From: an uncultured Planctomycetales bacterium
GTDB taxonomy: Bacteria; Omnitrophota; Gorgyraeia; Zapsychrales; CAYRXT01
Length of the DNA: 62,513 nucleotides
Assembly: GCA_964428315.1 (NCBI GenBank)
Contig: CAYRXT010000013.1
Coordinates: 1 to 62,513 of the forward strand
Direction: 5' to 3'
Notes under the pieces: model-generated
The model's input: the letters and a program-made list of their open reading frames with translations, nothing else
Told to the model about the DNA's origin: nothing
The model's database searches: none
Shown here: positions 1 to 62,513 of the stretch, piece by piece
Layout of the letters: each line of letters opens with the position of its first letter
Numbering within the stretch: the stretch's first letter is position 1
Translations under genes and position numbers: made by a program

Positions 1-220
1 CCGAATTCCGAATTTCAGACGGATCAGAAAAGTTTTTGTCATTGCGAGCGACCAAAGGGAGCGAAGCAATCTCATAAAGATTATTCTGACAAAGATTGCT
101 TCGGCGCTCCTTGCCGTCGCTTCTCGCAAAGACGGAGAGGGTGTACGGTCTAAGGATTCGATATTCAGGATTGGGAATTTATTCGGGATTTGGGATTTGG
201 CATTGGGAATTTTGAAATCC
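1..220 (+). repeat. Palindromic interspersed repeat (PR element), copy 1, truncated by window edge
   Basis: Matches 1681-1900 almost base for base. It contains the hairpin GTCATTGCGAGCGACCAAAGGGAGCGAAGCAATC...GATTGCTTCGGCGCTCCTTGCCGTCGCTTCTCGC. The ends are inverted: CCGAATTCCGAAT vs ATTCGGGATTTGGGATTCGG. Confidence 0.9.
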
Positions 221-24200: not shown

Positions 24201-27200
24201 GCCTTAGGGGTGACCGCGCGATGGCTTCTCAGCCGGCGTTTTACCTGGGGAATCTTTCTGATGGGGCCAGAGGGGAGATTGAGGATCATTTCATGGGAGG
24301 GCTGTATTCAGAGTTCCAGGAGCAGGGGACGATCATTCCGAAGGGATATAAGGAGGTTCATACTGTCGTGATGCGCGGGCCGTTTTTTCATGCACCGGAT
24401 GTCTTTATCTTCGGCATAGAGACGGGCGGATCTTTCGGGTGTAAGGAGAGCAGGAAGTTATATATCTGCTATTCCCCGAAGGCCCGGCAAATATTCATGG
24501 ACCAGGCTCAAATCCTGGTTGAGTCTGGAGGGGAACGGCTGTGTAAAGTTCTGTATAACGCCGTTCGCATTCACGAAGGCGTCGAGATAAGGCTGTTGGC
24601 CCGGGGGTACTCTTACGGATATGCGCATGGGATAGCCCTTACCGAAGAGCGCGGGTACACGGCTGACTATCCGGAAATCCAAATGGTCTTGGAGTGGATA
24701 AGAAGGCGATACTCGGACAATTGGGAGGGGTCCTTCGGGGACGCGCGTGAGCCCGCCGGAAATGCCGGATTTAAGTACGCCGACGCGTCCCTGTTGTCCG
24801 ACTGGGAAGGCTTCACGCCGGGAAGGGCGGCGCGATCTGCTCCGGCGCGCACGCGGGACGCATCCGCGGACACGGCGTCCGGGGAAGAAGGACCTCTTTT
24901 CCGCGGCCTGACCATGGGCGGTATTTACGATTATATCGCCCTGCTGAGGGAATACAAAGACACTGTTGTCCGCGCGTATTTTGGTTCTCCCGACCGGGCC
25001 GCGAGGGCGGCGGACATCCGGGAGGGTTACGCCGAAATGGTCCGGATCGTGCTCCGGGAAAAAGGCGTGCCCGGCGACCCGCTCGAATACGTCGTCGCGT
25101 CTTATGCAGGGGAATGGATGACGGGCGAGGCGGTCTTCGGGTTCACCCGGCAAGAGGCGGATTCAATCCTGACCGGGAAAGACTACGCGTACAGCCGCGC
25201 CCCGGTCGGCCGGCTTTATTCTCTTCTCGAGGATTGCGCGGACAGGCAGTCGTGGAACACGCGGTATTCGGTCACCCAGGTCCTTGTGCAATCAGGGCGC
25301 GTCGCGTTCGCGGAAGACGCGCAGGAGCGTTTCGGCCGCCTGTCCAGAAAACATGAAGGTAACAGGTTTGTGGGTATCAGGGAGGACGCGCCTTATATTG
25401 ATATGAATGTGTACACGCGGGAATACATTTTGCAAGTTAAGGGAAGCGGGATCGGGCTTTACCTTCCCGTGTCCACGGACCCGTCCCGGCCCCGGCTGAA
25501 GCCTTTCGACGACGTCGACACGCTGATGACTTATCTGGAAACCGCGATGCGGGCGCAGGAAGGCGGCGACAGGGAGACGGCCCTGCTTAATCTTAAGAAC
25601 GCCCTGTGGCGCGCGGAGAAGATCGACGAGGCCGACGGGAACGGATGGTGGAAACGGCTGATCATCGCGGACAAGGTCATTGAGTTCATCCGGGACTATA
25701 TCGAGCAGTATTTGAGCCCGGACAAAGAGAAAAGGCATGAGCCCGCCGGAGAAATATTCTACGGACAGAAGGGAGGCAGGAGCGGGCCGGTTATGGCCTC
25801 GGTGGCGGCGGGCTGGGCGCCGCTGATGGCGCGGGCGGCCGCCTGGCTCGCGGGGTTTGTGATGCCGGACCAAAACAGGTGCGGTTTGCCTCCGGCGGCT
25901 GAGAGGTCCGGGCTGTCGGTCCGGTATGTCTCCCGCGAGAACGCCGGGTCATTCATCGATGCGGGAGATCCGTCCGCCGGGCCGGGCGTCGGCATCGTCT
26001 ATAAAGACAGACAAGGCGCTGACAAACCCGGCGTCTTTTGCGTCTACGATACCGGCGGCCGGAAGGTTTATGAAACAATGGAGGTCTATCCGGAGGCCGG
26101 GCGCTGGGACTTCTTCTGGAGGGGGACGGATGCGTGCGGCAGCCGCGTGCCCGACGGAGTTTACCTGGTAAGCTTCCGTTCGGACGCGAAGACGGCCCGC
26201 GCGAAGGTCGTTTCCTTCCTGTCCATGGAAGAGGCGCTGGAAGACGCGTTTGAACGCCTTGCCTGGAATTTGAGAAAGGACCTGACCGCCGCGGTCGCCT
26301 TGGTCCAGAAGGATACCGCCGGGCTCGCGATAACCGGGGATCTCACGATAGAGGCGGCATTTCGCCTGAATAGTTGGACGCGCGCCGCGTCCGGTTACCT
26401 GGCCGGGAACGAGGAGATCGATTTCGGCCGCCTGAAAGAGCGGGCCCTGTTCGATATCGATCTGGGCCTGTACCTGGAGAGAAACGGGTGGGAGCCGCTG
26501 AATAGTTGGACGCGCGCCGCGTCCGGTTACCTGGCCGGGAACGAGGAGATCGATTTCGGCCGCCTGAAAGAGCGGGCCCTGTTCGATATCGATCTGGGCC
26601 TGTACCTGGAGAGAAACGGGTGGGAGCCGCGCGGCGCGGATTCCCTCATCGTGTTCAAGGACCGGCAGGGCTTCCCGCCGGTGTCCTGGGCAGAGCGGTC
26701 GCAGTACAGGAAGATAAAAGACATCCTGGAGCTTATGATTGGCGCGGGTTTCAGGTCCTGCGGCCCGGACGTCCGGCCGGACGCATTGCTCGCCTTCGGC
26801 GAGATGGAAACGGTCGTGGACAGCCTCAAGGGGTCCTGCCGCGGGTTGTCGCTGGTCTACGACGCGTACGCCCATGCCGCGGGGCTTGATGTCCAGATGC
26901 GGGAAAGCTGCGGTGGATCTGATTCGGCCTGGGACCACGTCTTTTTGACCGTCCGGGACAGCGCGTCCGGACTGACCTATCTCGTCGAGACTAACGACGG
27001 TGAGTGCGGCCTTGTCACCTTCGGTTTCATATGGGAAGAGGTCTTTCAATGGAAGTTTTCCGCGAACTGCTTCATCCGGAAAGGGCCGCTGACGGTCACC
27101 GTCATAAAAGAAGAAAACGGCGGGCGGCAGGTTCGTACCTTGCAGATATCCGACAAGTTCTATCACAGCGTGAGGAAGAGTTTTCCCGTCCGGGATTACA

Positions 27201-30200
27201 ATAAATTTTCTGTGATATCCCGAAGAGACAAGGACGGCCTGATCAAGGCAATCGAGCTGGATTACAAGTGGGACAATCTCCGCCCGGCGGACCCCATGCT
27301 GGAAAATCTCGAAGAGTCCTGGAGCCGCGGCTACGAATACTACGCTGAGGGACAATTTGCGCGGGCGGACTCCTGTTTTATGCGGGTTAATTGCATCCTG
27401 TCCAAGACTCCGGAATTGCAGGGTTATATGAATGAAGTCGGGGCCCTGCGGCAGAAAATCAGGGGCCTGATGGACCGGGACGCGAAAACCGTCGTCTATC
27501 AGCGGGGCCCGGTGAGCGGTTCGATCGTGATGGGCTGGGCGCCGCTGACGGCGCGGGCGGCCGCCTGGCTCGCGGGTGATGCGGCGACACAAATCACTCA
27601 GGAGGAAGACCGGATACTTGACATGATCCGCCAGAGACGCAACGAGACGGTGCTGATTATTTATGCCCTGGTTAAATATCAGGGGGACGCGGATAAAGAG
27701 GTGCGGGCAGATATGCTGAAGGCGGAGGGCCATATCCGGTACCTGCTGGATGTCTCCACGGATCAAGAGTACTATGAGCGTCGCGTGCCGGGTGAAAGAG
27801 CCAGGTTAAGGATTATGGCAGCGGCCGCGCGGGCGGTTCAGGATATCAGGAACGTGATTTTGGAGGAAATAAACAAGAGAAGCGGCATCGCAGAGGTCCA
27901 AGCCTGGCTGAAGCGACAAAGAGATATCATCGGCCGCGGGCCCGGGCAGGCGCCGGGCAGAGGCAGTATCGACCCGCGGGAAGAGGAGATCCTGATGGCC
28001 GGCGTTGGTTCCGGACGGCGGGAGTGGTTCAAGACGGCGCTCCGGGATTTTCTCGGCCTTTTTTCGGTGTCCGAGGCGATCGCGGCGGAGGGACAGGCGG
28101 AACGTACTTGGATCCCGACCGGGGTTATGGGCGATCTGAAAGTGAAAATTCAGGACGTGCAATGTATTACGACGGACAGGGCCGTCGCGGTGGGGGGACA
28201 TCGTTTCCTCTCCTGGATGGGCGGGTTTGTCGCGCTTTCGACCGACGGGGGCCGGACTTGGCGGCGGGTCGGCGAAGAAGTCGAAGAAATGATCAACGGC
28301 ATGAACGCCGTCTATTTTACTGATGACCGGAACGGATGGGCAGCTGGAGCGAACGGTGTAATTATTTCTACGGTGGACGGGGGAGAGACATGGGCCCTGG
28401 AAGATGTCCCGACACTTAATGATGACCGGTGGCTCGGGGACGTGTTTGTCCTTTCCGGAGGAAGCGGATGGGCCGTCGGTTATTCAGGGCTTCTCTTCAA
28501 GAGGCGCGAAGGCCGATGGAGGCCACTCGGCGTGGAGGGGCTCACGGAGAACGAACATCTTCTCTCTGTCTTTTTCATGGACGAACAGCGCGGGTGGACG
28601 GTCGGGTTCTCCTCCTCTTATCGGGCCGTCGCGCTCAGAACGGATGACGGCGGACAAACGTGGCGGCATATTCAGGATATCGAAAAACCCGGCATCAGTT
28701 TGTTTTACCGCGTTTTCTTTTCCGACAGCCTCAGGGGCTGGATCATCGGCACAGGGGGATCCCTCTTTAAAACCGTGGACGGCGGAGAGACATGGAACGC
28801 GCAGACCCTGCCCGTTTCATTAAAGGATCGTGATTTTGCCGATATTGGTTTTGTCGATGAAAACACGGGTTATATGGCCGGTAATGCCGTGGCCTTCACG
28901 CGGGACGGGGGAAAGACCTGGACGGGGGAACCGACCGGACACCCCGTTTCTTTGACCGGGCTTTCCGTGTATGACAAGGGGGCACGATGGGGTGCGCTGG
29001 CATCGGATGTCGAAGGATACGTGTGGCGGCTCGTCTGGGGGCCGCCGCAGGCGCCGGGCAGGCCTATTTTTACGGATATAACAACGCAGTCGCTGACTGT
29101 TTCCTGGAGGCGGGATCCTTCCGAACGGACCCTTTTCTATAATGTCTACCGTAAGAAGGATTCGGAGGCCGCCTTTCCCGCAAAGCCGGTCGCAAAGATC
29201 CTTTCCACGGATACTTCTTATGTGGATCAAAATATTCAATGCGGTCAAACGTATGATTATCTTGTTGAGGCCGAAAACAACAGCGGGAAATTCCGGGGAC
29301 CGTCGAACCAGGTGACTGTCGACTGCCTTTGTGATTTGAGCATCAGGATGGAAGATATCCCCGAATGGGTTGAACCTGGAGCGATGGTTTCTCTCGTTTT
29401 CTCGGTTGAAAATCATGGTCCGGCCGATTGTGACACAAGTTTTGCCGTTCAATTTTCTGAAAGCTGCTGGGGGATCAATGAGGTCTTTAAGAGTGAGCGG
29501 GTCTTGGATGTTATCCGTTATGATAGCATAAAAGCCCATCAAACTTTAACGGATACTTTATACTGGTCGGCTTACTGCCAGGGCGATGATTCCTTGGATA
29601 ACGGGTATATATACTATATCGATGCTGAAGCGGATGCGTTTGATGAGGTTAAAGAATTAAAGGAGTCTAATAATCGTGATCTTGATGGAACAAACGTCCG
29701 GTGTCCGTTTCTGCCCGATTTCGCCTTTATCCCGGATAGTTTTCATGTGAACGGCGAATACCTGCATGACAACACTCTAAAGGGCGGGAGCTGTGTGATT
29801 TTTTCCATTCCCATCATTAATCAAGGCAGGATAGGATTAGATTATATATTGGAGATGGATTACATTGAAGTCTTTTGTGAAATTGATTTGAATAATGACG
29901 GCGGCGAGGCATTTCAAAGGGATGTTATTCTCAGTTCTCAGCAGGGAGAAATTTTATTGCCGGACGCGGGGTCACAAATAGACATTGTTTTCAAAAAATG
30001 GATCAATATTCCTCCGGGAACGCATATGGTCGCGTTGGAGATTTATAATGAAAATATCGACGAGTCGGATGTGGAAAACAATTATTTTACGACCTGGATA
30101 AGGGTTGAAAACATGGATAAGGATTTTTCCCTGCCGTTTTTTGATGATTTTGACACGGAAGACGCCCGGCAGTGGTGGCACGCGGACTTGCCCTGGTCGG

Positions 30201-33200
30201 TCGACAACGGCCGTTATGTGCCCGGTCATCCACAATATAATTTTGAAAAAAATGTCGTGTATGCCGGCAGCGAACAATGGACCGATTATGATTACAGGGT
30301 GACGACGGGAGGTCACGACAGTCTGATGGCGGGCCTGATCTTCCGGGACGGCGACGTCCGTCATTACAGGTTGATTTACGTAAAGAGGCCGGCGTCTTCT
30401 TTCGGGCTTTTGAGGTTGTATCAGGGAGAGCATGGATGGCCGACCTGCATAATTTTGAAAGACGCGGTGGTCCCCCCTTGCGGGGACGCGCCGGTTGAAT
30501 TGCGCGTTGTCTGCCGGGATTCCCATATCGTGGCGGGGCTCGACGGAAAGGTCTTTATTGATGTCACCGACGACTGGTCCCCGCGGGGGAACATCGGGTT
30601 GATTAATGTGGGTGATCCTTCCGGGGTATGGTTTGATTCCGTTCGCGTTACCGGTTTTGATGACGGGGCCGCTTCCGCCTTTCCTGATCTGCCGGACAAT
30701 GTGTTTGTCGGGGAAGGGCTTCCCTTTACAATGGACCTGTTTTCTCCCGGGGAATGGCAAGCCAGGTTCCTGGCCGTGGCGGAGGTGGATGCGCCCCTGC
30801 CGGGAGACCTAACCCGGGAAGAAGACAGAATAGCGTGGATCCCGCCCTATACGACCGTCGACTCCGGAGAAACAGAAGGATATCCGTTAAAGGTGCGGTT
30901 CAAAGATCGGCAGACCGGACAGGTCTTAAAACAGGAGACGGTCACGGTTACCGTCGGGGATGTCCCGCGTCAGGCCGCGTCCTTTAAAAATTTCTTGATA
31001 TCCGCCTACAGTTTTCATTTGGAGAGTCCCTATTCCTGCGATCTGGGGCTTAACGTCTGGCACCCCTATGACGCGCGGGACGCCGAACAGATGTTAAAAG
31101 AGGCCAAGGCACTCGGGGTCAAAATCATTATGGGAGGATTTCACTATGACGGCCGATGGATTGCCTGGCATGATGTTTTAACGGTTTATGCTTTGCAGGG
31201 CGTGAAAGGATTAAGGCAGATCGCCCGGCAGACTTTGAGTCGTCTTAATGAACTGGACGCGCTTTCGGAGGTGTTTGCCTTTTATCTGGTGGACGAACCG
31301 GTTTACCGTACCGATAAAGAGAGGGAAGCGGCGCGGATTCTTAACTCCTTCTTGAAAGAATGCGACCCGCAGCGGCCGGGCATTGTTTCTATGGGCGGCT
31401 ACTTGTACAGGACGCACGGCGATCTTGCTTTTGACGACCTGAATCTGAATTATTACTGGAGCAATACGTATCCGGTTTTTGCCGTCACTCAGACAGAAGA
31501 TCATTTTCAGGAAAGGTTAGATATTTACATCATTTCTTTGGAATACGATCAGAAAAGGGCTTCTGAGGCCGGCGTGTTCTTTATGGCCGGCGTGCAGGCG
31601 CACGAATGGGCGCGTTTGCAGCAGGCGCTCAGACAGACGACACCCGGAGAGATGCGTGTTCTGGTCTGGCTGGCGCTTGCTTACGGCGCCAAGGGTATCT
31701 CTTATTTTGCCTATGATTTGAGTCCGCATTATAACGCCCTTTTAGGATTGGACGGAAACCCGACGGAATGTTATTACGAGGCGCAGGATTTGAATTGTAA
31801 TGTTCTTAAACCTCTGGGTTCTGTGTTGATGAAACTGCGATGGACCGGGGCCTGGCATGTCCGCGGGCACAAGAATCTTTCCGGAGAAATGCCGTACGTG
31901 AATACTATAACCGGTACGGACGCGAATATCCAGGTCTCTTCGTTCAAGCATGCCGATGACGGGTCTTATTATATTATGCTGGTTAACAGAAATCCTGATG
32001 AAGTAACGGATGTGACCGTAACCTTTAATTCTTCCGCAGATTTTGTCTGTTTGCAGGATGTCCTTACCGCGCAGCAGATATCGCTTTCGGGGCAAAGGGC
32101 CGAAATTCATCTTGAACCGGGTTCGGGAAGGCTGCTGAAGACGCCGCTTTTTGTCATACCGGTGGAGAAAGTGGAGAAAAAAGACGACGAAGGTGAACTG
32201 CGTTTTCAGCTGCTTCAGAATTTCCCCAACCCCTTTGACGGGTCGACGAAGATCCGCTACACGCTGGAGAAGGCCGGGCGGGTCACCGTCGAGGTTTACA
32301 ACCTGCTGGGGCGCAGCGTCCGCGCCCTGGCGCAGGGCCGTCAGGCCGCCGGGGAACACGCGGTGACGTGGGACGGCCGGGACGACGCCGGGAACGAGGT
32401 CGCGGCCGGCGTGTACCTGTATGTCCTGAAGGTCGACGGCAGGGTTGTCGGCAAAAAGAAGCTGCTCCTCCTCTCGTGCGGGGAGGGGGACAGCGCGGGA
32501 CCCGACATATCCTATGCCGGCGTGAACCTCGCCGGCGTCACGGGCTTCTTTGGCAGGGCCAAGGAGGCGATTGTTAATGTGGGGGCCAAGCTCTGGGATG
32601 CAATCGACTCCAAGGCCATGGCGGAATCTTCTCTGAGGACGGTGACCTCCAAAGGCCCTTCAGGAAAGGTCGTCCCTTGCCCAAGGTTAAAGGAGGCGGT
32701 TCATTATCCACATCAAGATACGATCATTCATGAAGCCGAATATTCTTTACAGAGAAATAACCCCCTGGATTCTTATGTGGTCAGCCGGACCGTCGTCAAT
32801 CAAAAAGAAAGAAGTTATGAGCCCGGCGTGATCGCGGTTAAATTAACCCCTTCCCCCGCCGCTACTCATTACACGACGGCCCAGCCGGTCCGAAATCGTT
32901 TCCCCTCGTCACAAAGAATAGAAACACTTAACAGGACATTCGCCTTGAGCGATCCGCGGCCCTTTTTCTCGAAGGTCATCAGGGAACACATCGCTGGCAG
33001 GAGAGCGGACCGTTCATTGAGGAAAGGCAACGCTGGTCCGGCCCCCTCCGCGCACGATTTGTCGTTATGGTACATGATTGAAGTTCGGCCCGGAGAGGAA
33101 CGGGAGGCTGTCCGCCAGTACGCCGGGGCTCGAGCGATCGAACGCGCCCAGCTGATTCACAGGCACACGCGTTTTTCTCATCTGCCTTACGACACTTATG

Positions 33201-36200
33201 TCAATCCGACGGGAGACGGCGTGACATGGAGCGGGGGAGTGTTCGCGAGAATCGAATTGGAGCTGGAAGATTCATGGTGGGCCAAACGGGGAAAGGTTTT
33301 TGAGGCCAGAGAGTATTTGAGGAATAGAGGCCTGCTCGATGGTTCCCAGACAAAGATTCCCCTTGGCTTTGTCGATACGGGAATTGATCCCGACCATCCC
33401 GATCTTGAAGGAAAAGTCAGGTTTAATCCGGATGAAATTCCCGATAACGGTCTGGATGACGACGGAAACGGTTATATTGATGATTTCTGGGGATTTGATT
33501 TTAAAGGGGGAACATTTAATTCTGGAACCGGGCTTTGGATCAATGACCGGGACGGACCATACGACCTTAGCGGACACGGGACCATGACGGCTGGGATTGC
33601 GGCGGCCATTAACAACAACGCGGAAGGCATTGCCGGGATTGCGGATGGTCTTGTCGAAATTGTCGTGGCCAGGGCCCTGGGGGGAGACGGGGCGACCGAC
33701 ATTATTTTATCCAACGCGCTCATGTATCTTGCCATTCGGGGAGCGCGCATTATTAACAACAGCTGGGGGCCCGCTCAACCTGTCGCGTCGAATCCTCTGA
33801 TCGAAGACGTTATCAAGACGCTCACTTATGATTATGGAATCATGGTGTTCTTTGCCGCCGGCAACAGCGGGGTCAATGTCGAGTACGTTTCTCCGATGAA
33901 TCTGGGCGAAACTTACAGCATTACGGCGACCAATCCTTTTGATCAGTGGGAGCCGTGGTCGCCTTTTGGACACGGGCCGAACTACGGACCGTTGAACGAC
34001 CTGGCCGCTCCGGGATACAAAATCCTTTCCACCGTTCCTCCTGACGCGCGCAATCTTAATCCGTGGCAGAAGGTGCCTTATGGCAGTATGCCCGGGCTGT
34101 ATTATTGGGATAACGGAACTTCCTATTCCTCTCCCATGCCGGCCGCCGCGGCCGCGCTTGTCATAACGGCTAATCCGGAATTAAACAAGCCCACGGTTCT
34201 TAACAACATGACGATTGGTCAGATCCTTATTGATACGGCCGATTCCCTTGACGGCGAAAACTACGCCGGCACCGGGATCATCAATATGCTTAAGGCTGTC
34301 AAAAAAGATCCCGGGTCAGTTCTTCCCGCGAGAATCACGTGCCCCGGGCCGGGAGAGGTCGTTTCAGGACCGCTCGAGCTGACCGGGACAGCGGCAGGAG
34401 ACCTTTTTGAAAGCTACAGCTTATATGTTAACACCGGAGACTCATGGGAGATGATCGGCCAGACGCAAAGGGATCCCGTGGTCAACGGAGCGCTGCTTGG
34501 CTGGGACTCGGGCATGCTTTCCGACGGACGCTATCCCCTGAAGCTTGTCGTGAAAGGCGGGGACGGAAATCACAGTGAGCATCAGACGGTCTTGCAGATT
34601 CAGAACAATTATATCAGTTATCCTCAAGCGGAAGATATCTTCAACAGAAAAGATAAAATTATTATCCGGGGAAAGGTTTCTCCGGTCGATTTTGTATCTT
34701 ACAGGATTGAATATAAAGAGACGAATCAGAACGGCTGGAAGACGGAAGGGATGGTCTTACTCGATGGAGGAACGGCTGCGCCGGGCGATGATCGTCTGGC
34801 CGAATGGGATATTTCCCGCATACCCTTTGGATTATATACCCTTCGCATGAGTGTCGTCACCCGCGATGATTTAGGAACGGAGGTCGAGACGGTTATCAAG
34901 GTCCCGAGGGTGTTGATTGAAACGGCAGATGAAATACCGTCTCAGGCGGGCTGGCCCAAAAGCACGCCGACTCAATTCATGACCGCCGCCGACATAAACA
35001 ACGACGGCTATAATGAGATTCTATTCTATTCGACAGATAAGGGGAGAGGAAACGGCATTCACATGTACCTCCACGACGGCAGACCGGTGCCGGGATGGTT
35101 TGATGCGCAGGGCCGGCCCGTCCACCGCGTTGGTGCTATTCCCAAGTTTGCCGTGGGCGATGTCAACGGAGATCAGAGAGTCGAAGTGGTCGGATTTTCG
35201 GTCCATGACAGCCTTTTTGTCTTTAACGCAGAAGGAGCCCTGCTGGACAAAAAGTTCGTGGGGCCGGGTCAACGATCGAATATGCCTCACGCGGCGGCCG
35301 TCTTGACGGATCAGACCGGAGACGGAATTTTGGATATTGTTATTGCCTCGGTTGATGCCAAGCTTTATACCTTCCAGTGTATCGGTAATACGATCCAGGA
35401 GCCCTGGACTCATCTGTCGCTGCCATATGCCGAGCTTCAAGCAGCGACTCCGGCCGTGGGGAATCTGGACAACGAAGGCCTGGAAGAAATTGTTCTCAGG
35501 CCGCATAACGGACGGATTTTTGTGGTGCGCCGGGACACAATTGTGACCTCGAACGCCCAGGCCGGCCATGGAGCCGCAGCTTCGCCTGTCTTGGCCGATC
35601 TGGATAATGACGGAAAGCCAGAAATAATTCTTCCTTTAGGGCTTGAAGGCAACGGCGGGGTTATCGTTTATCAGTCTATGGACGATAAATTGCACACTAT
35701 GCCGGGATGGCCTCAATACACAAATGATCCGGGGCACACGTACACGAACGAGATTTATGCGCATCCGGCCGTCGGTTTGATCAACAGCGATCAGCATCCG
35801 GATATTCTCTGCGTTTCTTTATTTAATGAACTCTACGGTTGGAGTCATGAGGGTTACCGGATCTGGGAGGATCCTCTTCAAATCAACGGATTGGGAGGGA
35901 CGCGGGATAATCCCGGCGCTTCTTATTATAACACGCCCCTGGTGGGCGATCTTGACGGGGACAGCGTCCCGGATATCGTCGTTGGAGTAAATAATGACCT
36001 TTATATCTTCAGCTGGGTTCCGCGGGAAGGGGCGAGAGTGTCTTACGTCTTCCACCTCGAGAATTCGGGATCTTTCTTCTATGGAGGGATTATCGATGAT
36101 ATCGACAAAGACGGGGATACCGATCTTCTCATCAGCGCTATGGACGGCGTGTACGCCTGGGATTTTCCCGGCGCGTATAATCCTGAGACAGTTCACTGGG

Positions 36201-39200
36201 GGGAGTGGCGCAACGGCCCGAGAAATACAGGCCTTTACAGAGCCCCCGACTTACCGACACATGTTGTTCCGGAACAATCGGCTCCGCAAACATTCGCTCT
36301 TTCGCAGAATTATCCCAATCCGTTTAGTCTTTCCACAACCATCCGGTATAACGTTGCCGAGCCGGGCCCAGTGCGGCTGGTGGTTTATAACATTAACGGG
36401 CGGAAGGTTCGGACATTGGTCGATGAGTTACAGGAAGCCGGCACGAAGAGCGTGGCGTGGGACGGCCGGGACGACGCCGGGAACGAGGTCGCGGCCGGCG
36501 TTTACCTGTATGTCCTGAAGGTCGACGGCAGGGTTGTCGGCAAAAAGAAGCTGCTCCTCCTCGCGTGCGGGGAGGGGGGGGATGATGAGGATCCTCTGAC
36601 GCAAGGCCGGGAGAAACCGGCGGCGCGGTTTGCGTCTCCCGGAGGGATCGCGTGCATAGGCGTCTCGGTGCGGATGATGCTGTTGCGGCTGGCAAACAGC
36701 GGCAGGCTTAACGTTTTTGACGCGAAGCCGGCTAATGGGGAAAATGGGGGCCGTCCCTATTTATCCCATTTATCAGGGCCGGTTGCTCTGAACAAAAAGA
36801 GAACGTCAGCTTTTAAGGAGTTGGATGAAATCTTCGGCAGGGATCCCGGCGCCTTTGAGGATAGCCTGGAAGGTTCCCGTTTTAATGATTTTCGATCCGT
36901 GGAGAGGGATGACGCATCTGCGCCGGAGGTCGCTTTTATGCCGCATGACGACATGAGAGCCTTTTTGACGGAGGATAATGAAGCCGGCCCTGCCCAGGCA
37001 CGCGACGATCTGTTTACCGGAAACCCGCGGCAGGCGGGTCATACGGAGACCTCGACGTCTTCCACCATGACATCGATGTCTGCGGACGGGACAGGAAGCC
37101 CGTCCATGCGAAGAGATTCGACATACAGCGCTATGGCTTCCTTGATATTGGCCAGGCCTTCGGCAACGGTCTCGCCCTGGCTTGCGCAGCCGGACAGCGA
37201 GGGAACAAAGAGGCTGTATCCGCCTTCAGGATCTTTCTCGATAACAACCTTGAATCGTTTGACCATTTTTTCACCTCCGTTAAAAAATATACTACGATTG
37301 TCCGGGGAAGTCAATTCATACACTTCTCAGACACGGATAGTCCATTCGGGAAACAGGGGCCGCCCCTGTATAGCTTGCGACGCGTCGGAGAAAGACCTGT
37401 CGCCGGAGGCGTTGGCGGGGTACGTGGATTATTTCGGCGGGATCGGGGAATTCACGCCCGTCGAGGATATCTATGGACGGCTGGAGGTCCGGGAGGCCCT
37501 GTCCGCCGCCGGCCTCTTCGCCGGCGACGCGCGGGCGCGCCTGCGGGGGAAGGGCGTGCGGTTCGTGCGTCCGCCTTCAAGCTGGAACCTGAAGTGGGAA
37601 TACGGCGCGGCGGTCTATGTCGAAAATGAAAACGACATTTACATCATCCTTCCGGAGGGTACGTCCTCGCTGGTCATCGCCCACGAGATCTGGGCCGCCC
37701 TTAATCTTGATTCCGGACACGAAGACAATCCCTTTGTCATCAAAGAGCCGGGATTCCGGAAGACGCTGGTCTCGATGCTCCCGTGGGTGAAACCCGATCC
37801 CCTTGACGGCGTTGAGATCGTCAACGACTACACGCGCAAACTCATAGAAGAGAAAAGGGACTACGGCCGGGCGCTCGGGGTCTCGCTCCCGGCCTACGAA
37901 CGGTCGCAGGACGAAAAGGTCCTGCGCCTCCTCATCCCCGCGCTGGTCTTGACCAACAATATCTCGGAGGCCGAAAGCCTCTACCTGCGCGCTGCGCCCG
38001 AGGACCGGGCCGAGGTCATCGATAACCTGGCCCGCGCCCTTGTCTGGTCAGTGACCGACTACAAGAGGGGATATGAGTTAATGGCCCTTTTCCTCGCGAC
38101 GGGGGATTCGCCCGCGTCTTACATGCGTTTCATGGGCCGATTTATGAAGACGTTTTTTATCCGGTATTTCAACGGGCCGGCTCACGACGTCCATTTGGAG
38201 AATCTCGCGGCGTTTAAGGCGGGCCGGCTCCCCGCGGCGCTGACACGGGACTACGGTCCGGTCGGATCCTTCCGGGAGGGCTTCGACCCCGGCGTCTTTC
38301 CGGAGATGACGTTCGCCGTGCCCGCGGACATCGGTTCCATGAACGCGCTGGGCAGGGCCCTGTTCGCGGCGGTCCGGGACGACGCCCGGCCTCGCAAGTT
38401 CGTACGGATCGACGGCCAGGAGGGGCTGGAACTCTCCATCCTGGAAGACGACCGGGTCCATGCCGAGATGTACGGCCGCATCCACGCCTTCCTGGAAGAC
38501 GCCCGGTATCACGGTACTATCGTACAGGGCAAACACCTGCCGACGGCCCTGAACGGCAGCCGCAGATTCCTCGGCAACGATTTCCGGGGCGAGGACCTGG
38601 CCGCCTATTTCAACAAGGCGGCCGCAGACACGGTGCCCCTCGATGCGTATGAGAGGTTCCTGCTGGATTATCTTCTGAATGAAAGAGGCGTCCTGGCCCT
38701 GAACGATGACGGCGCGTACGAAAGCCGCAAGAAGTATTTCCTCGCCACGGTCTGCATGGACGGGTTTTACAAGGATTACATGAAGGAGCATCTCTTCGGC
38801 CATGAACTGCGGCATTACATGCTTTACATGTCTCCCTCTTACGAAAAAGACCTGTGGGCTGTCTGGAAAGAGGACCTCAAGGAGGAAGAAAGGGAGGTGG
38901 TGGAAGACTTCTTCCACGGCCGGGGCTACGACAAGGGTAACGGGTGGCTGATGGTCAAGGAGCTCCCGGCGTGGATCTACCATCCGGATTTTATGAAGGC
39001 GACCAAGATCCGGCCTCAGGTGGTCGAAAAACTCAAGGAGAGGGAGGACGCCGCCTTCAGGGAGATCTTTCTTAGCCGGCATGGCTCCAGCGGCGAAGAG
39101 ATGTTTGGCGAGGCCACCCGGCCGCGCGCGCGCGAAGGTTCGGCTCTCCCCGTCATCGCCGGGCCGAAGCACTGCGTCGTCAATGCGGTCTTCATGGCGG

Positions 39201-42200
39201 TGAACCTGATCCGGTCGGCGCTGTCCCGGGGAAATAGTGAAAACGGGGACGGAACCTGTTTATCGAAATCCTCCAACTTCAGCGCCGCCGAGATGGACGA
39301 GGTAGCGCGGATGCTGGAGGAGGGTGACAAGGAGGCGGCGGCGCGCGCCTGGAAGTACGCTTCGATGATGCGGGCGCTGGAGCATCAGACAGGCGGCAAG
39401 GTGATCGAGCTGGAAGGGAACCTTATTTCCTGCAATCCGCAATTAAGCACGCCCGGCGGAGGGGCCTTTGACGTGAAGAAGATCCTCGCGGTCCTGGAGG
39501 TGAGCCCGGATTACACTATTACCAGCCGCACATATCAGGATGTTCATAACCTGATCGCCGCGCTTTATGTGATTAAAAGGCTCGAGTATTATGACAAAAC
39601 AAAAGACAAACTTGCGCATGCCCGGGATGTTATCGGCTCGTGGGATGAGCTCTGGGCGCCGCTGATTGCCGGGCGGATATATTCGCCGGCGCAAGTCGCT
39701 GACATCCTGCGCGCGACCGCGCGTTTATCCCGGCTTAGGGGCGTGCCCGGCAGCGAAGAGGCGAGAAGTGTGCTGTTCCGGGCCCTGCAAACGGCGCCGA
39801 CGGCAGAGGATTCAGTGGAGACGGTGCGACGGTTATTCACGGGATGGGATTTGAAGCGTAAACTTCAACTGGCCTTGTCGTCGATGCGGGAGGTTGCGCG
39901 CGAACTGGAATTGTTCAGTATGGATTTATGGGGACCTGAACGCAAGGTGAAAGCGGTTTTGTTTTCGGCCTGGGCTTTCAGTCATAGATCGTCGCGGTCT
40001 CTGCTTTTTTCGTGGGATCTCGAGGAGAAGCTCGGGCTTGAAAATGACAGCCAATACCTGCTCCTGTCACATATTTTCGCTGCGCCGCTGGCCTCGGAGA
40101 CTTCTTTGCGCCAGATATTTGAGGGAGCCCGGGGCAAAGACGCGGCCGAAGAAATCCTGGGACAGGGATGTGTTCTCGCTATGCCTTATGCGGGAATCGT
40201 TCTTTGCCGTTTCCTTGGGGCCTTTGATATTGTCATCAAACTGATGCGGCTTCAGACGCACTGCTGTTTGATGGTTATGAAGGATGGATATGCTTTTATT
40301 TTTGACAGCGGTTATTCGACGGCCAGCCGGTCTTTCCGGTTAGAGGACTATACGGAAAGGGACGGTGAAACTTACCATTTTAAAGAGGCGTTTTTCCGCG
40401 ACGTCTGTCCCGAGGGGTGGAAACACACACATTTTAAATGGTTTAAATTGTACGATATTTACGGGTTCCCCGGATTTATACAAAACAATATAGATCTCAA
40501 TATATATAAAACAAAAACAGAAACAGAAACAAAAACAAAAACAGGTGACAGTCACCAAACAGGTGACAGTCACCGTCCGGGGACAGGGATGACCGGGCCC
40601 GGCGAGGCCACCCGGCCGCGCGCGCGCGAAGGTTCGGCTCTCCCCGTCATCGCCGGGCCGAAGCACTGCGTCGTCAATGCGGTCTTCATGGCGGTGAACC
40701 TGATCCGGTCGGCGCTGTCCCGGGGAAATAGTGAAAACGGGGACGGAACCTGTTTATCAGTTTTGAACAGCCGCCTTCTCTTTGGTGATGCGTTGCGAAA
40801 TCCATTTCTGCGGGAGTTCTCCGGGGGAGAGGCCGGCCTTGCAGGCCAGCTTGTCAAGGATCCTGATCTGCCGGGGCTTAAGGTCGAGGACGATGTGTTT
40901 GGGGCGGGGGGGCCGCGCATTTCTTGCGGGCCTGATGTCCTCCGGGAAATCCGTTATGCTGTGGGTATCCCAGAAGGCCCGCTCTTCACGGACAGATTTG
41001 AATTCCGGGGTTTTTCCGGTCTTTTTCATCCCTCTTTATATTTTGTGGATTCTATAACGACCTTTTCTGATGACAGCCAAATGACCGGTCAGATCTTGTC
41101 GAGCCACTCGGGAAAGGAAGTCGCGGAGGAGTTCGTTGATTTCGCTGATGGTAAGCAGATGGACCCTCAGGAGAATAATCCCGCAATTAGACGGGGGAGG
41201 GTACCTGAGGATATTGCTAAAATCGGTATCTCTGGTAATGAGTATACAGGAATCACGTTGAATCCTTTCGAAAATTTCTTCATCCGTGGACTGCGGATTG
41301 ATATCCCGGATATCAACAGCATCATGCCCCATAGTTTCGCACGTACTTTTAATGGACCGGGGGCAATCGGCATCGATCAGAAATCTCATAGTTTAGGAAG
41401 GTTGTTTGATAAGTTCTTGTTCGTCAGTGAGCATTGCGGCGAACAGAAGGCAGGCATGAATATCTTCCATAGTAATGGGAGCGTATTCTCTAACAACCTC
41501 TTCGAAGGGCATCCCGCAGGCAAGAGCTTCGAGAACTACATGAACAGGTATGCGTGTGGCTTTAATACATGGCCGACCATGCTGAACCGCGGGGTCGGTA
41601 GTGATGTGTTTCTCAATAAGTCTTTTATTGACCATTTTTATCCTCTTTTAATGATTCCAAATATAACATGGAATAATAATATTGTCAATTTAGAAGGGAT
41701 TTTTGATAGAAATAAAGGTGACTGTCACCGTAACCGTAAACGGCCCTACTCTCTCCTCACCGTGCCGGAGGTGTATGGGGATAATGGAGAAGAGGGAGAC
41801 GGGGGAGAAGGGGGCCGCGGGCCGCGTCCTCCGCGGCAGGGTTCTTCTGAATCTTCATTAACGCGGCCCGCGGCCCTTGACAGCTTCACGGCCGTGTGGA
41901 ACGGGGACGCATACGGGTATGAAACAGGCAGCAGCGTCCGGCTGTACGGGGACATGGAAGACCATCTGAAACAGGCCGGGCTCCTGCTGAGCGAAAGCGG
42001 CCGCGACCCGCCGGAGCGGATCACCGTTATCATCACCGCCGACGCCGAACTCTTGGGCGTTGACCCGCGGACCGGCCGGACCTACGTCATGGCCAGCCGG
42101 ACCGATCCCGACGCACGTTTCCTCATCTTCATCCACCCCTACTATTTCACCCTGCGGGAAAACATAGACGGGGAACTCGCAAGCAACCGTAACGAGTCCC

Positions 42201-45200
42201 TGAGAGGTATCTACGACGCGTACACACGTGTCTTTGAGGTACGGTTTTTGCCCCGTGCCGACTTCGCCCGTCTCCTGATGATTGAGATGCCGGCGCACGA
42301 GTTCCTGCATTTCGCGGGGATGGACGAGGCGCAGGCGCTGGAGGCCACCTTCGTCTTGAGGGAGAGACTGGTGGAGGAGAGAAGGGCGGAGGACGTCCAA
42401 TGGTATATCCGGGCGGTTAAACAACTCCAGCGGCCTGATACGCGTGAGGAGGGCCGCGTTGCTTTAATGCGCATGAGGCATAAATCTGTTGTGCCCTCCC
42501 TCCGTCTCAAAGCGGATTCGGTCCTCTGCGCGATCCCGTTCTCTCCGGACTATCCTGTGGGCTTGCGCAGGGCCGTTGTTCAGGTTGTAGAAGACGGATT
42601 GACGCGCCGGCCTTATGCCGGACGTTACGGAGAAAGAGATATCCGGCTTCTTGAGAAATTGTCCTTCGCGGAGGCGGCCGGATGGAAAGTCCGCAAAGCG
42701 GCTCTGGAAACACTAATAGGCATAGCCCGCAAACAAAACCTGGTGGTCCCCGGGCACAGAAGGACAGCCCTGGAGGGCCTGGAGGAATTCATCATATCCA
42801 TCGATGACGATAAGTTGCGACATCTTGTTTTGAAAGCGATCACCATGAATGCTTTCCGTCCATCGCTTCCGGAAAACATAAACCGAGAGAATCTTGAGAG
42901 TCTGTTGCGTCTCTATGAAGCCCTTGGGGGGTCCCTCAAGATGATTGTCCTTGAACAGCTCAAGACGGTTTCGTCTCATGTGCGTTATAACGAAGTTAAA
43001 GAGGCCCTGTTCCGGTATTTTGCCGGTCAGTTGGACGCGCGTTCTGTTCCGGACGGCGGCATGGAGACCGTCTGCGCCCTGCTCGCGCGGACGATGAGCG
43101 TCTCGTCGACAATGCTCGCGCTCGGCGACAGCCTGATCAGCGCGGACAACCAGTATTATTACGCCGTGGACCTCGGGTTCGTTCCCGGTGAAGTCCGGAC
43201 CGTTTATGAGGACGGTTTTATCCTGGCCGCGGAGCCGGACGCGGGACTGCGGCTCGGGCTGGCCTTTGCCGTGGCCAAATACCTTAACGACCACGGCAAG
43301 GAAGTCTGTCCGTCCAACATCAGTGCCTTAGGAGGGTTTGTGGCCGGTCTGAGGAAGGAATTCTCGGAAAGAGAATACATTTCACCTGAGACAGATTATA
43401 TGCTGAATATTTACGACCGTTTGGATCGCGAAGTCTGTTTTAGGGATATAGCCGGGACTTGGGCCGGCCTTTCGGCCGGGTTCATCGGGGATTCCGTGAA
43501 GATAAAGCTTGCCAGCACGGGCGGCGGGCGGGATTTGCGCAGATCCCTGAATGAGGCCGGGCGGAAGGCCCGGGAGGGAAAAATCTTTGCGGGAGTGTTT
43601 GGCCACGGTTCCGGAGGGAAAGCAGGGGCCGTGAAGAGTCTGTTTGGCAGGCTGTTTCTGGACCCGACATGGCGGGAGGCCATTGAGATCAATCAAGATG
43701 TGATCCCGGCCGGCCGGATTATGAAAGGACTGATGAGCGGAACAGCCGCTGATTCGAATAAGAAGGTGCACCTGTCGGCATGTTTTGCCGAAGACAACGC
43801 CGTGGCCTGTGCCTGGTGGATTGCCCGGCGTTTCGATGTGAGTGCGTACAGGCCTGTTGACGCCCTGATAAGCGTAACCAGTTTGAGGCAGAAGGCGCTG
43901 CCCGGTATCTATGAGGAGGCCGCGCGCTCTTTTATCGAGGATAACCTCAAGGACGGCCGAGTAAAGAATCCTAAAGGACAGTGGACGGGGCGGGATTATT
44001 TCGAGCTTGAAAAACGGCTGATAAGGCAAAGACGCTATAAGCAGAAACCGTCAATCATCATCGGGCTGACGCCCCCCCAGCGGGAGGAGCTGATAAAGAT
44101 CGAGGAGACATTGATCGACCGAGGGACGCCCAGGCCCGCGCCCCGCGTGAAGCAGTTCGGCGCCTACCCGGAGACCATCCCCGACGGGTTCATGAAGATC
44201 TCTGGTAATGTGGACAAAGACGACAGGGACAAAGGGGCCAGTCCCCGAAAGGGGACTGGCCCCTTTGATGGCCCCTTCAAGGGGACTGCGCCCGTTGCGT
44301 CCCGGTTCACCGCCAGCATCGCCGGCTCCCATGCCCTTATCTTCAACTGGCTGGCGTCGGCGCTGGGCCGGGGAGGGGAAGCGGATGTCCCGGCGCGCGC
44401 GAAAGGCGCGAGCGCGGTCGAGGACCTTTACGTCGACGACAACGCGGCCGAAAACGGGGACGGGCTGAGCGCGCGGACGGCCTTCCTGACGGTCGGTGAG
44501 GCCACCGCCTTTATCGATTCTCTGCGGCAGGCCGGGGAAGCGCAGAGAGTGACGATCCATGTTGCGGCGGGTACCTACCGGGAGCAGGTCGTTCTCGGGG
44601 ACAACACGACCCTGCGGGGCGAAGGCCGGGACGCGACGGAAATTTATCTTCCGATCAAATGGGGCGCCATGGTGCGCGTCACGGGCGTTGACGTGCGGAT
44701 CGAGGATATCGAGATTGAGATTAAACCCGTTATGGGCGGCCCGGCGGGGCTCCATGTCGAAATGCCCATGGGTCTGAACTGCGAGGTCAAAAACAGCCGG
44801 ATCGTGGCGTATATGTCCTGTGGGACGGCGGTGGTTCTTTCGGGCAGTACCGGGCTGTTTGAAGGCAATGAGGTCATCGGCTTTGACTTCGGGCTTATCG
44901 TGAATGGCCATGGATGGCTGGTAAAGGACAACTATTTTGCAGGCTCGACGTTTGAGGAAATAAGGGTGTACGGCCAAACTCTGGTCCAAGACAACACGAT
45001 TGACGGGGAGATCGCCGTTTTCACGACGCCGCAGGGCACGCCGGCCCTGCTGAAGCGGATCGAAGCCGATCCCACCCTTTTCGGCATGGACAAGCTGACG
45101 GACAAGTTTTATTACAACGAGATTTTGCGGGGCAGGTGCGCACCCGATATGCCGGACGCCCTTTCTTCCGGGTATAACGCCGAGATCAAAGGTAACCTGC

Positions 45201-48200
45201 TCAATGGCTACCTTAACCTGGCCTCGGGAAACAATTATGTCCATCATAACGTCATTCGTAACGCAGGGAAAGCCGTGGACGTGGGCTGGTGGGCGTGGAC
45301 ATGCCACGGCAACAGGATCGAATCGAACCGGATCATCGACTGCGATGCCGGCATCCTCATCCACAAGGGCCGGGGCCACGTCGTCGAGAGGAACCTTATC
45401 GCGGTTTTCGATTACGGTGTCAATATTCGCAAAGAAAACATCGAAGGGCCGACCGTGCCCGGGGACGCGCAATTTGTGAACAACACCATCGTATCGACCG
45501 GAGAGGGCGGCCGTGGCGGGATCATCGTCTGGTCAAATGGCGGCGGCAACAGTGTCACGAACAATATCATCGTCATCCATGATCCGCAGACCGGGCGTTG
45601 TGTGTCTAACAATACAGGCAGGCCTTCGGATGTGAATGTGGCCTATAATGATCTGTACCGGATTGGCTTTTCAGACGAGCCGGATCCTTACCGTGATACT
45701 TACACAAACGAGGCCGGCAATATCTACGCCGACCCGCTGTTCACGGTGGGGAGCGGTTACCGTCTTGATGCGGCTTCGCCCTGTATAGATGCGGGCAACC
45801 CGGCGATGACCGATCCCGGGACTTTTTCCCGGGCGGATATGGGCTGCTACCCCTACAGGGTTCCGCGTGAGCCGTACAGCTTAGCCATCGCTTCCATAGG
45901 GGATCAAAGGGAACGCCGGCCGTTTTGGATCAGCTTGACCGCCATTGACAGCCTGGGCTTGCCTGTAACGGGCTTTACGGGCAGGGTGGATGTGACGGAT
46001 CTGACCGGCACCCTCAGGCCGCGGATGAGCGAACCGTTCATCGACGGCCGGCTACGCCAGCAGGTGGTTGTGGACAGTGCGGCCAGGCAGGACCGGATTA
46101 TCGTGGCTTTCTCCGGCGGTAACAAGACGTTTATGTCCGAACCATTTGACGTCTTGGATGTCTACGATTTATGCCATGTTTATCTGGACGGTTCTGCCGC
46201 GTCCGGCGGCGACGGGTCGCTGGCGCGGCCTTATGACAGATTCAACAATGCCATAGCAGGTGCGGCCAAACTGGCTCTTGACTATGAGTACAGGGAGGAG
46301 GTTACGATCCATGTGTTCCCGGGAAGGTACGAGATATCCGGTTCGCTCAATATCCCTCCGATGGTCAATCTTGTTTCCTTCAGCGGGGAAGGGGCGGGTA
46401 CCGGTGATGTGGAGATCGTTACGAGCGGCTTCCCGTCAACGGGACGGCACCGTGCAGTGGAAAAATACGGTACGGGCGTTGTTCGCGGTCTTGTTTTTCT
46501 TAACGGAGACAGCGAGAAGAACGTCATAGCGCTTGAGCTCGACGCGTACGGACGGGAGACCGGGGACAGGACGACCGTGGTGGAAGACTGCCTTTTCGAG
46601 GGGTTCACGGAAAGCATCCTAGCCTATCTTAAGACCGAAGGGGACATCCTGATACAGAGAAATACGATAAGATCAAGGTGGTTTGATATCACGTATATCG
46701 GATACTCGTCTGACGAGGGAGCTCTTGTCGTGAGAAGAAATATTCTCCAGGGTGCCCACGCCGGATTTTTATATGAAGGCCGTGACGAAGAGATCCCGCA
46801 GACGGAGGTCTTGATCCACAACAATACGTTTTACGGCGAGGACGGATGGCGGGGTATTAATATCTCCGATCCCATGCCGTATGCCACCAGGATCGAGAAT
46901 AATATCCTCTGCGGATGGGAGACTCCGGTGCGGGATCCTCACTTGGTCTCCGAGGGCGGCGTTAACTACAACCTGTTTTTCGACAACACGTACGATTATG
47001 CGGGCGGTGGGACCGGCAACATCACGGGTGATCCGTTATTTGTATATGAGAAAGGGAGCGATTTCCGTCTCATGCCGCTTTCGCCCTGTATCGACGCCGG
47101 CAATCCCGATCCGCAGTACAGAGACCCCGACGGGACGCGCAACGACATCGGCCGGCATGACTGCGCGTCGCGTTACGGCTATTTCGTCGTCGATTCTATA
47201 GCGGCACAGGCGGCGGGCCGGGACTTCCGGGTCAACATCACGGCCTACAAGAGAGGGGACGCAGGGGTCTGGAAAGATTTCAACGGGCAGGCGCGGATCC
47301 TGGACCGCACCGGTGACCTTACCTGTCTTCAGCCTGTATATTTCGAGGACGGAAGATGGACGGGGACGGTCCGCGTCGAGGAACACCTGGTCGACAACAT
47401 GCTTCGGGTGGAATCTCAGGAGGGCGTGCTGGGGTATTCTAACCTTTTTAGCGTCTACGATCCGCAATGGATGACGGTTTACGTCGACACAAACGGAACA
47501 GGAGGCGCGAGCGGCCGCGCCGACGATCCGTTTTCTTCGGTCATCGAGGCCGTGTCAGCGGCCAGCACGCGGGCCGAAGAATATCATATTCCCGTCACCG
47601 TCCGCGTGAGGGGCGGCAGGTACGATATCGTTCCTCCGGCGGGAGAGTTTTACGGGTGCGTTCTCGCGGACGGCGTCAGCCTGGAAGGCGATCCTGAGGA
47701 CAGGCCCGTGTTTGTTGCCCGGCACTCGCCTTCTCAACATCTGTTGATCAGTGCGTATCTGCTGAAGAAGGGGGCGGGCAACATCAAGGACATCATTCTC
47801 TTTAACGGGGCTGACCAGGCCAATTCTTCCGGCATCAGGACGGACAGCCGCGCCCGAACGGTGATACGTAACGTTCGGGTGGAAGACTTTGCGTCGCCTA
47901 TCAGCGCGTGGCGTTTCGCGAAGGTGACGGTGGACCACTGCCTGATCGCACGCTCTCCGGTAACGGCGGGCCTGACGGCTGGCAGCGGGGACACCCTCGT
48001 CGTTCGCAACACCACCTTCGCGGACACCCGGGGCGCGGTATGCTGGCGCAGCGCCGGGGTTTACAGCGAGTTCCTTAATAATATTGTCGTGAACCGCCAG
48101 GAAGACATCTTTGTCGATCCTTCCGGTGACGCGCGGATTAGCTTCAACTGTACATATCACCTGGATTCGGGGACTGGTTACACCGGAGGGACAGGGAACA

Positions 48201-62464: not shown

Positions 62465-62513
62465 TAGTGACAAAAGTAACATGAAAGAAAAATGACAAAA
62501 AAATAGATTTTGT

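Follow-up and report, generated by a model that had tools for sequence, protein, structure and literature searches.

A predicted hicBA toxin-antitoxin cassette antisense to a giant open reading frame

The hicBA cassette and the frame that crosses it

The window analysed here is a stretch of 62,513 nucleotides (contig CAYRXT010000013.1 of GenBank assembly GCA_964428315.1, from an uncultured Planctomycetales bacterium that GTDB places in the Omnitrophota), and its plus strand is occupied by one giant open reading frame (ORF). On the opposite strand, between two protein modules of that ORF, lies hicBA, a small operon predicted to encode a HicB antitoxin and a HicA toxin (Table 1). A reading made from the sequence before any database search (the sequence-only reading) had described on the minus strand a TTGACT-17-TATATT promoter, a HicB of 75 amino acids (aa) and a HicA gene joined to it by an ATGA overlap, and all of these were recovered at 37314-36806. 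Searches with hidden Markov models, which it had named beforehand as the test of homology, placed both products above the Pfam curated cut-off of 27 bits: HicB matched PF15919 (HicB_lk_antitox; E 1.7e-11, 44.7 bits) over profile positions 1-63 of 123, and HicA matched PF07927 (HicA_toxin; E 1.3e-16, 60.9 bits) over the whole profile (1-58 of 58).

The two genes are small, adjacent and co-oriented, with hicB preceding hicA, they are translationally coupled through the 4-nt ATGA overlap, and they have a promoter of their own; the same layout was found in all relatives checked, and it is that of a type II toxin-antitoxin operon. A promoter scan of the 1.2-kb region gave 3 promoter-like sites against 0.1 expected from shuffled sequences, and a terminator scan of the hicBA region found none. 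Residues G28 and H30 of the GSH motif are invariant in a 13-sequence HicA alignment and are kept in the window HicA; in line with published HicA work, we take this histidine to be the catalytic residue. Among the PDB relatives, HicA matched T. thermophilus 1WHZ (E 8e-6), while HicB matched the N-domain of HicB3 (4P78), 6G1C and the 67-residue TTHA1756 (2YZT), in each case over the same part of HicB. HicA is thus predicted to be an RNA-cleaving toxin and the short HicB its neutralising antitoxin.

The cassette shares with known HicAB systems (E. coli HicAB, Yersinia pestis HicA3B3, Burkholderia pseudomallei HicAB and T. thermophilus 1WHZ/2YZT) a full HicA domain, the Gly-Ser-His motif, the HicB N-domain, coupling by a 4-nt overlap and a sigma-70-type promoter. 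It differs from them in that the whole operon is antisense inside another ORF, and in its HicB, which ends at residue 75 and lacks a C-terminal DNA-binding domain (ribbon-helix-helix or helix-turn-helix), like TTHA1756 and unlike HicB3. The relatives of this HicB measure 72-77 aa; the missing domain marks a subtype and, as 2YZT illustrates, does not bar HicB membership. The gene order is also the reverse of that in E. coli K-12, where hicA comes first.

The frame that crosses the cassette (codon starts at 2 mod 3) contains no stop codon, against 315-919 in each of the other five frames, and it obtained the top codon-usage score in 403 of 415 sliding windows. An alternative genetic code was considered and rejected, as the frame is without any stop codon of whatever kind. 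The Pfam domains found in frame are Sigma70_r2/r4, many TPRs, BNR/YCF48, fn3, CARDB, four to five FlgD_ig/sorting domains, Peptidase_S8, FG-GAP, NosD, FBPase and RelA_SpoT; scans of the window against Rfam and for tRNAs were negative, and it holds no marker gene, rRNA or tRNA. Giant ORFs of the Omnitrophota type are marked by a single stop-free ORF of more than 20 kb, tiled in one frame with many unrelated domains that include an S8 or C39 peptidase, and the window ORF shows both traits. In its length of more than 60 kb, its many unrelated Pfam domains, its subtilase (S8) and its many hydrophobic stretches, the ORF resembles those described in Omnitrophota (Kizina 2022; Seymour 2023; West-Roberts 2023; Nielsen and Lui 2026), and the presence of cytoplasmic and secreted modules in one frame recalls the 'multi-enzyme cluster' class of Omnitrophota giant proteins (Nielsen and Lui 2026). 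The products of such ORFs have been proposed to be cut into pieces, with which the subtilase module of the window agrees; the published proteomics on giant ORF products concern another species.

According to the sequence-only reading, the cassette occupies an intergenic-like gap after the second sorting domain (the domain text running to about 36562), across which the sense frame stays open with a translation rich in S, T and P. Both statements hold: the gap extends over 36563-37372 (810 nt), and the plus frame gives that text with 0 stops, against 13 and 15 in the other two plus frames. The sense translation of this gap has no Pfam family match. By synonymous resampling with the codon usage of the giant ORF, the plus frame would be open with P 0.27 over hicB and P 0.27 over hicA; multiplied by the values for the two spacers (0.27 x 0.27 x 0.041 x 0.148), this gives a probability of about 4e-4 that the whole gap is open by chance.

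A composition filter over alternative-frame ORFs, used together with local ORF lists, revealed two more cassettes of this kind, so that the giant ORF contains three antisense toxin-antitoxin islands including hicBA, each with a TATATT promoter (Table 1). Synonymous resampling gave a chance of about 3e-5 that all 7 nested genes of the window leave the plus frame open.

Table 1. Features of the giant ORF, the hicBA spacer and the other antisense islands, in window coordinates
Feature	Coordinates	Strand	Details
Giant ORF	2..62464	plus	stop-free over bases 2-62461, TGA at 62462-62464; at least 20,820 codons; may extend upstream of the window
Internal C-terminal-type sorting domain (FlgD_ig / T9SS-like)	36338..36562	plus	PF13860, E 3e-10, aa 113-172 of 36002-39001; match at nt 36338-36517
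Spacer downstream of hicA	36563..36805	plus, read through	0 stops vs 3.1 expected; P(open) 0.041 (shuffles)
hicA, predicted toxin gene	37042-36806	minus	78 aa; ATG at 37042; register r0 (codon-aligned) relative to the giant frame
hicB, predicted antitoxin gene	37266-37039	minus	75 aa; ATG at 37266; ends GTA TGA
Shine-Dalgarno GGAGGTG	37278-37272	minus	GGAGG at 37278-37274; 7 nt from GGAGG to the hicB ATG
hicBA promoter TTGACT-17-TATATT, sigma-70-type	-35 at 37314-37309, -10 at 37291-37286	minus	10/12 consensus matches
Spacer with hicBA promoter and ribosome-binding site (RBS) on the other strand	37267..37372	plus, read through	0 stops vs 1.8 expected; P(open) 0.148
Island 1	9781-9094	minus	promoter TTGCCT-17-TATATT at 9781-9753; GGAGG; small antitoxin-like ORF (ATG 9724 to 9500); PIN_3 toxin at 9507-9094 (PF13470, E 3.4e-23)
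Island 3 promoter TTGACA-17-TATATT	41688-41660	minus	11/12 consensus matches
Island 3 DUF433	41635-41393	minus	PF04255, E 8.5e-20
Island 3 DUF5615/PIN-like	41389-41036	minus	PF18480, E 6.5e-21
Island 3 CopG-like gene	41029-40757	minus	PF12441, E 4.7e-5, below cut-off

Related loci and selection on the two strands

The protein collection held 23 HicA homologs, all full-length (73-79 aa) and at most 76% identical, and a scan with the HicA alignment over one genome per species yielded 79 loci. An exact look-up of the window HicA returned no called gene on record, probably because gene callers assign the region to the giant ORF. A metagenome scan with HicA turned up 23 loci, none above 64% identity and none nested beyond the short contigs already found. 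Among the 18 closest hicA loci, 12 are titled Candidatus Omnitrophota/Omnitrophica, 5 uncultured Planctomycetia/Planctomycetales and 1 Aminicenantes; the 12 Omnitrophota titles are indirect evidence that the host genome of the window may belong to that phylum.

In 14 loci from independently assembled bins (L029-L033, L036-L039, L041-L043, L046 and L085; 9 titled Omnitrophota and 5 uncultured Planctomycetia/Planctomycetales), hicA lies antisense in a frame that runs without a stop for 1,084 to at least 6,743 codons, often takes up the whole 20-kb locus and always stands in exact codon register with hicA. The antisense open span at hicA in non-Omnitrophota loci is 42-280 codons. The 14 nested loci have a GC content of 36-52%, below the 56% of the window, and all of them carry a hicB homolog directly upstream of hicA. 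When the giant-frame translations were compared between loci, likeness was almost confined to the hicBA stretch and the flanks were mostly unrelated; likewise, a DNA alignment of 12 cassettes showed conservation from the -35 TTGAC, through TAtatT and AGGAGG, to the hicA stop codon, with unrelated flanks on either side. Other antisense genes in the related giant frames also belong to toxin-antitoxin families (BrnT, CopG antitoxin, DUF433, DUF2283 and AF2212-like). The two closest homologs show open antisense frames: in L001 (66% identity, 41% GC) a stop-free antisense frame of 1,084 codons, running off the contig end, covers BrnT, CopG, DUF433, HicB, HicA and DUF433, and in L005 (76% identity) the antisense strand is stop-free over all 996 nt. 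Second, more divergent hicB(-hicA) copies were seen in L029 (5646-6055), L043 (2303-2718) and L030 (14685-14894), the last two also inside a stop-free antisense frame.

The antisense giant frame of L001/L029 (1-3252) contains, between small antisense genes, three copies of an in-frame motif, …YLNNTIF..SQDFRPETVNYPL…, possibly a repeated spacer element. The repeat in L001 prompted us to consider an integron-like array, an idea that was dropped, as conservation ends at the promoter and at the stop codon and there are no shared flanking sites.

Three loci provide a natural control. In L035, L040 and L044, the promoter, hicB and hicA lie in a gap of 0.6-1.2 kb between two large co-directional minus-strand ORFs that are not fused, and this gap contains 6-34 stops in each antisense frame. 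These unfused loci suggest a history in which an ordinary cassette first stood between genes and was enclosed once the ORFs on either side had fused in frame.

Codon-usage scoring did not separate the two strands over hicA (own frame -0.02, sense frame 0.08) and favoured hicB over its own stretch (0.12, against -0.08 for the sense frame); for the choice of strand it was given up in favour of divergence by codon position. Mean pairwise divergence at codon positions 1, 2 and 3, counted in the genes' own frames, was 0.33, 0.19 and 0.61 for hicA (13 copies) and 0.35, 0.20 and 0.61 for hicB (14 copies), and all copies compared are intact ORFs of 72-78 codons. HicA and HicB are therefore under purifying selection, and hicBA is the selected coding strand. 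Over hicA, the most variable position is the first codon position of the giant frame, which indicates that the giant frame is not conserved as a protein here and is only kept open.

The way in which it is kept open can be read from the nested genes. In a codon-aligned antisense register, an opposite-strand stop can arise only from the sense codons TTA, CTA and TCA. The nested hicA genes of nine low-GC loci contain none of these codons, whereas non-nested homologs of similar GC contain 4-5 of them; in the host giant ORFs, TTA and CTA account for 26-46% of Leu codons and TCA for 14-17% of Ser codons. The probability that a nested copy lacks all three is 0.003-0.04 per locus, and the log10 P values sum to -17.9 (a joint value of about 1e-18) with the nine loci taken as independent. 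Dynamic programming singled out the observed frame: of the three, no other leaves both HicA and HicB free of unavoidable opposite-strand stops, and in the third register 2 stops in HicA or 1 in HicB would be forced. The same rule extends to 52 nested genes (7 in the window and 45 in the 14 loci), with 34 codon-aligned, 18 shifted by one base and 0 in the stop-forcing register; among 15 Pfam-confirmed genes outside the hicBA clade, 13 are aligned, 2 shifted and 0 forcing. These sequence patterns argue that the continuity of the giant frame is itself under selection, stops having been purged through codon choice, register and spacers.

Meaning of the nested cassettes

Taking into consideration the conserved operon, the unconserved but open sense frame and the recurrence of the arrangement, we think it probable that hicBA is an autonomous module, tolerated in a spacer between modules of the giant ORF, and that selection preserves the continuity of this ORF. 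It would be a complete, independently transcribed type II module placed opposite an Omnitrophota-type giant ORF, which crosses it as an unconserved linker with the lack of a stop codon as the only constraint. Ribosomes would have to traverse the giant ORF without terminating, and for that reason only antisense, register-compatible genes would persist inside it. Such a gene can keep its own stops while opposite-strand stops are avoided by synonymous choice, as hicA would do in the codon-aligned register and hicB in the register shifted by one base. The cassettes may have begun in ordinary intergenic gaps between co-directional large genes, as in the unfused loci, and may then have been swallowed by in-frame fusion. 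Most likely, hicBA is a selfish addiction cassette at one of the few permissive sites of a compact genome, and deletions within the long gene would be penalised as a side effect. The linker peptide would be discarded, perhaps through the subtilase-type processing proposed for such proteins.

Two kinds of known system offer a comparison. Toxin-antitoxin cassettes have a stabilising effect in Vibrio superintegrons, and a comparable effect may be supposed for the window. As in other cases where cassettes lend stability to large, dispensable DNA (Vibrio superintegron arrays, integrative elements), several type II families occur in one long, repeat-rich and probably deletion-prone stretch; unlike in the Vibrio arrays, the cassettes of the window lie inside a reading frame and not between genes, and no integron integrase or attC-type sites were seen. 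With the antisense nested genes of bacteria and phages, the window shares open frames on both strands, mostly in the codon-aligned antisense register, which has the fewest opposite-strand stops. It departs from them in that only the nested gene is conserved as protein while the host frame is merely open, and in that whole mobile operons, promoters included, are nested, an arrangement that recurs across many genomes. The giant-ORF literature (Kizina 2022; Seymour 2023; West-Roberts 2023; Nielsen and Lui 2026) makes no mention of opposite-strand genes, of toxin-antitoxin cassettes inside the ORFs or of stop avoidance across spacers, and full-text literature searches found no published description of such nested cassettes.

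Several points weigh against a tolerated cassette in a selected frame. Openness over hicB and hicA alone has a P of only about 0.07; the weight of the case lies with the spacers, the two other islands and the related loci. The counts of nested cassettes are raw and not scaled to the share of the genomes that giant ORFs occupy, and as the loci share ancestry, the joint probabilities come out too high. Species-representative genomes scanned with 37373-39172 yielded no relative of the flanking module, nor did 5.8 billion proteins searched with the sense translation of 36563-39172; there is consequently no orthologous empty site for comparison. As HicB has no DNA-binding domain, the usual autoregulation is not to be assumed. 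The hairpins that flank the cassette at 36748-36780 (z -1.05) and 37352-37372 (z 0.03) fold no better than shuffled sequences, and their candidacy as terminators or insertion boundaries was dropped for that reason. Finally, both the transcription of hicBA and the translation of the spacers are deduced from sequence.

A bolder proposal goes beyond tolerance, and we put it forward tentatively, as possible though rather unlikely. Here, giant ORFs would be built by in-frame fusion of adjacent co-directional genes across their intergenic spacers and read end to end. The antisense toxin-antitoxin operons trapped in those spacers, whose forbidden codons and permitted registers would reflect joint evolution with the giant ORF, would act as its functional parts: they would be addiction 'rivets' that guard against deletion, or else switches, working through RNase or antisense RNA, by which the giant mRNA is cut or throttled where modules meet.

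That the cassettes serve specifically in regulatory coupling seems improbable to us. Under this explanation, the nested RNase toxin modules would be functional parts of the giant gene, their promoters firing head-on into its transcription. Transcription of the giant gene might silence the labile antitoxin, so that the freed RNase feeds back on a long, cut-sensitive mRNA; or an antisense RNA of about 0.5 kb might guide double-strand cleavage to the borders of modules in the giant mRNA. The nested toxins HicA, PIN_3 and BrnT are indeed RNases by family annotation and DUF5615 is a predicted PIN-like nuclease, the outward-facing promoters are conserved, the cassettes are found where modules meet, behind a sorting domain, and of about 19 close hicBA relatives, 14 lie within giant ORFs. 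However, the same cassette is also found outside ORFs, its flanks and positions are mostly unconserved between genomes, which fits mobility better than a fixed role, and constraint alone explains the pattern fully.

Far less probable is that hicBA is a decaying relic, an inactive remnant of an old intergenic cassette through which the giant ORF now reads. Decay of this sort does happen in the giant ORF, as a truncated copy of the island-1 antitoxin at 4270-4498 shows, and the short form of HicB might be taken as another sign of it; yet neither hicB nor hicA is shortened in the window or in 13-14 relatives, divergence is greatest at third positions, the promoter and RBS are conserved, and the histidine of the GSH motif is kept.

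The sequence-only reading had left sequence error open, and it is hardly conceivable that we are dealing with several separate genes and an ordinary intergenic gap that is open through chance, misassembly or sequencing error: the modules do resemble separate proteins (a sigma factor, an FBPase, secreted proteins ending in sorting domains) and near-identical repeats in the first 17 kb could mislead an assembler, but the arrangement is repeated in three islands and in 14 independently assembled bins of 36-52% GC, the 20,820 codons of the frame hold zero stops against 315-919 in the others, copies of the cassette that are truly intergenic have 6-34 stops in each frame, and error cannot produce forbidden-codon avoidance and a register rule, so that error and chance are ruled out as the source.

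The papers describing the 20-250 kb ORFs of Omnitrophota leave open whether each is read as a single unit. Foreign operons and the surrounding non-coding DNA, purged of stops in exactly one frame in many genomes and down to the choice of codons, provide evolutionary evidence that frame continuity is selected, and the unfused loci suggest that giant ORFs grow by fusion across intergenic gaps. There may also be a blind spot in annotation: if gene callers give such regions to the giant ORF, toxin-antitoxin genes and perhaps other small genes are missed in these genomes. The codon-register rule, for its part, offers a simple, testable condition for an antisense gene living inside another.

Repeats and minor features of the giant ORF

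Three modules of cytoplasmic type share the frame with the secreted modules, which would be odd for one polypeptide: a complete sigma-70-type factor (regions 2 and 4) at about 13750-14430, an FBPase-like module at about 52700-53540 and a RelA/SpoT domain at about 57000-57310. At its end the giant ORF meets three stops in a row (TGA TAG TGA, 62462-62470), with two further in-frame stops within 45 nt. Near its beginning, a 95-codon ORF in a different plus-strand frame (232-516) has a protein-like composition and no Pfam match, and codon scores in 2-601 favour that frame; the giant ORF may really begin downstream of this small ORF, or may extend past the upstream edge of the window.

The end of the sorting domain that borders the hicBA spacer (36452-36578) is 98% identical in DNA to that of the previous sorting domain (32363-32489), which suggests recent recombination or gene conversion between modules. 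The truncated stretch at 4270-4498 is a partial copy of the island-1 antitoxin region, matching 9466-9583 at 100% and 9669-9787 at 91%; it is without about 85 nt and the PIN gene, and resembles the remnant of a decayed cassette in the giant ORF.

Repeat families of 180-300 nt with 94-100% identity occupy 1-17000 (for example 4570-4869, 9817-10116 and 12475-12774). They translate to palindrome-like VIASDQRERSNL…IASALLAVASRKDG text, which is typical of intergenic repeat elements, yet they are stop-free. The copies of a four-copy repeat of 220 nt (1-220, 1681-1900, 4936-5155 and 8782-9001) are spaced by multiples of 3, so the giant frame is kept. Elsewhere, 39107-39264 and 40601-40758 form a perfect direct repeat of 158 nt, with the CopG-like gene of island 3 ending right beside the second copy, and 26366-26629 is a perfect tandem duplication of 132 nt (44 codons) in the giant frame.

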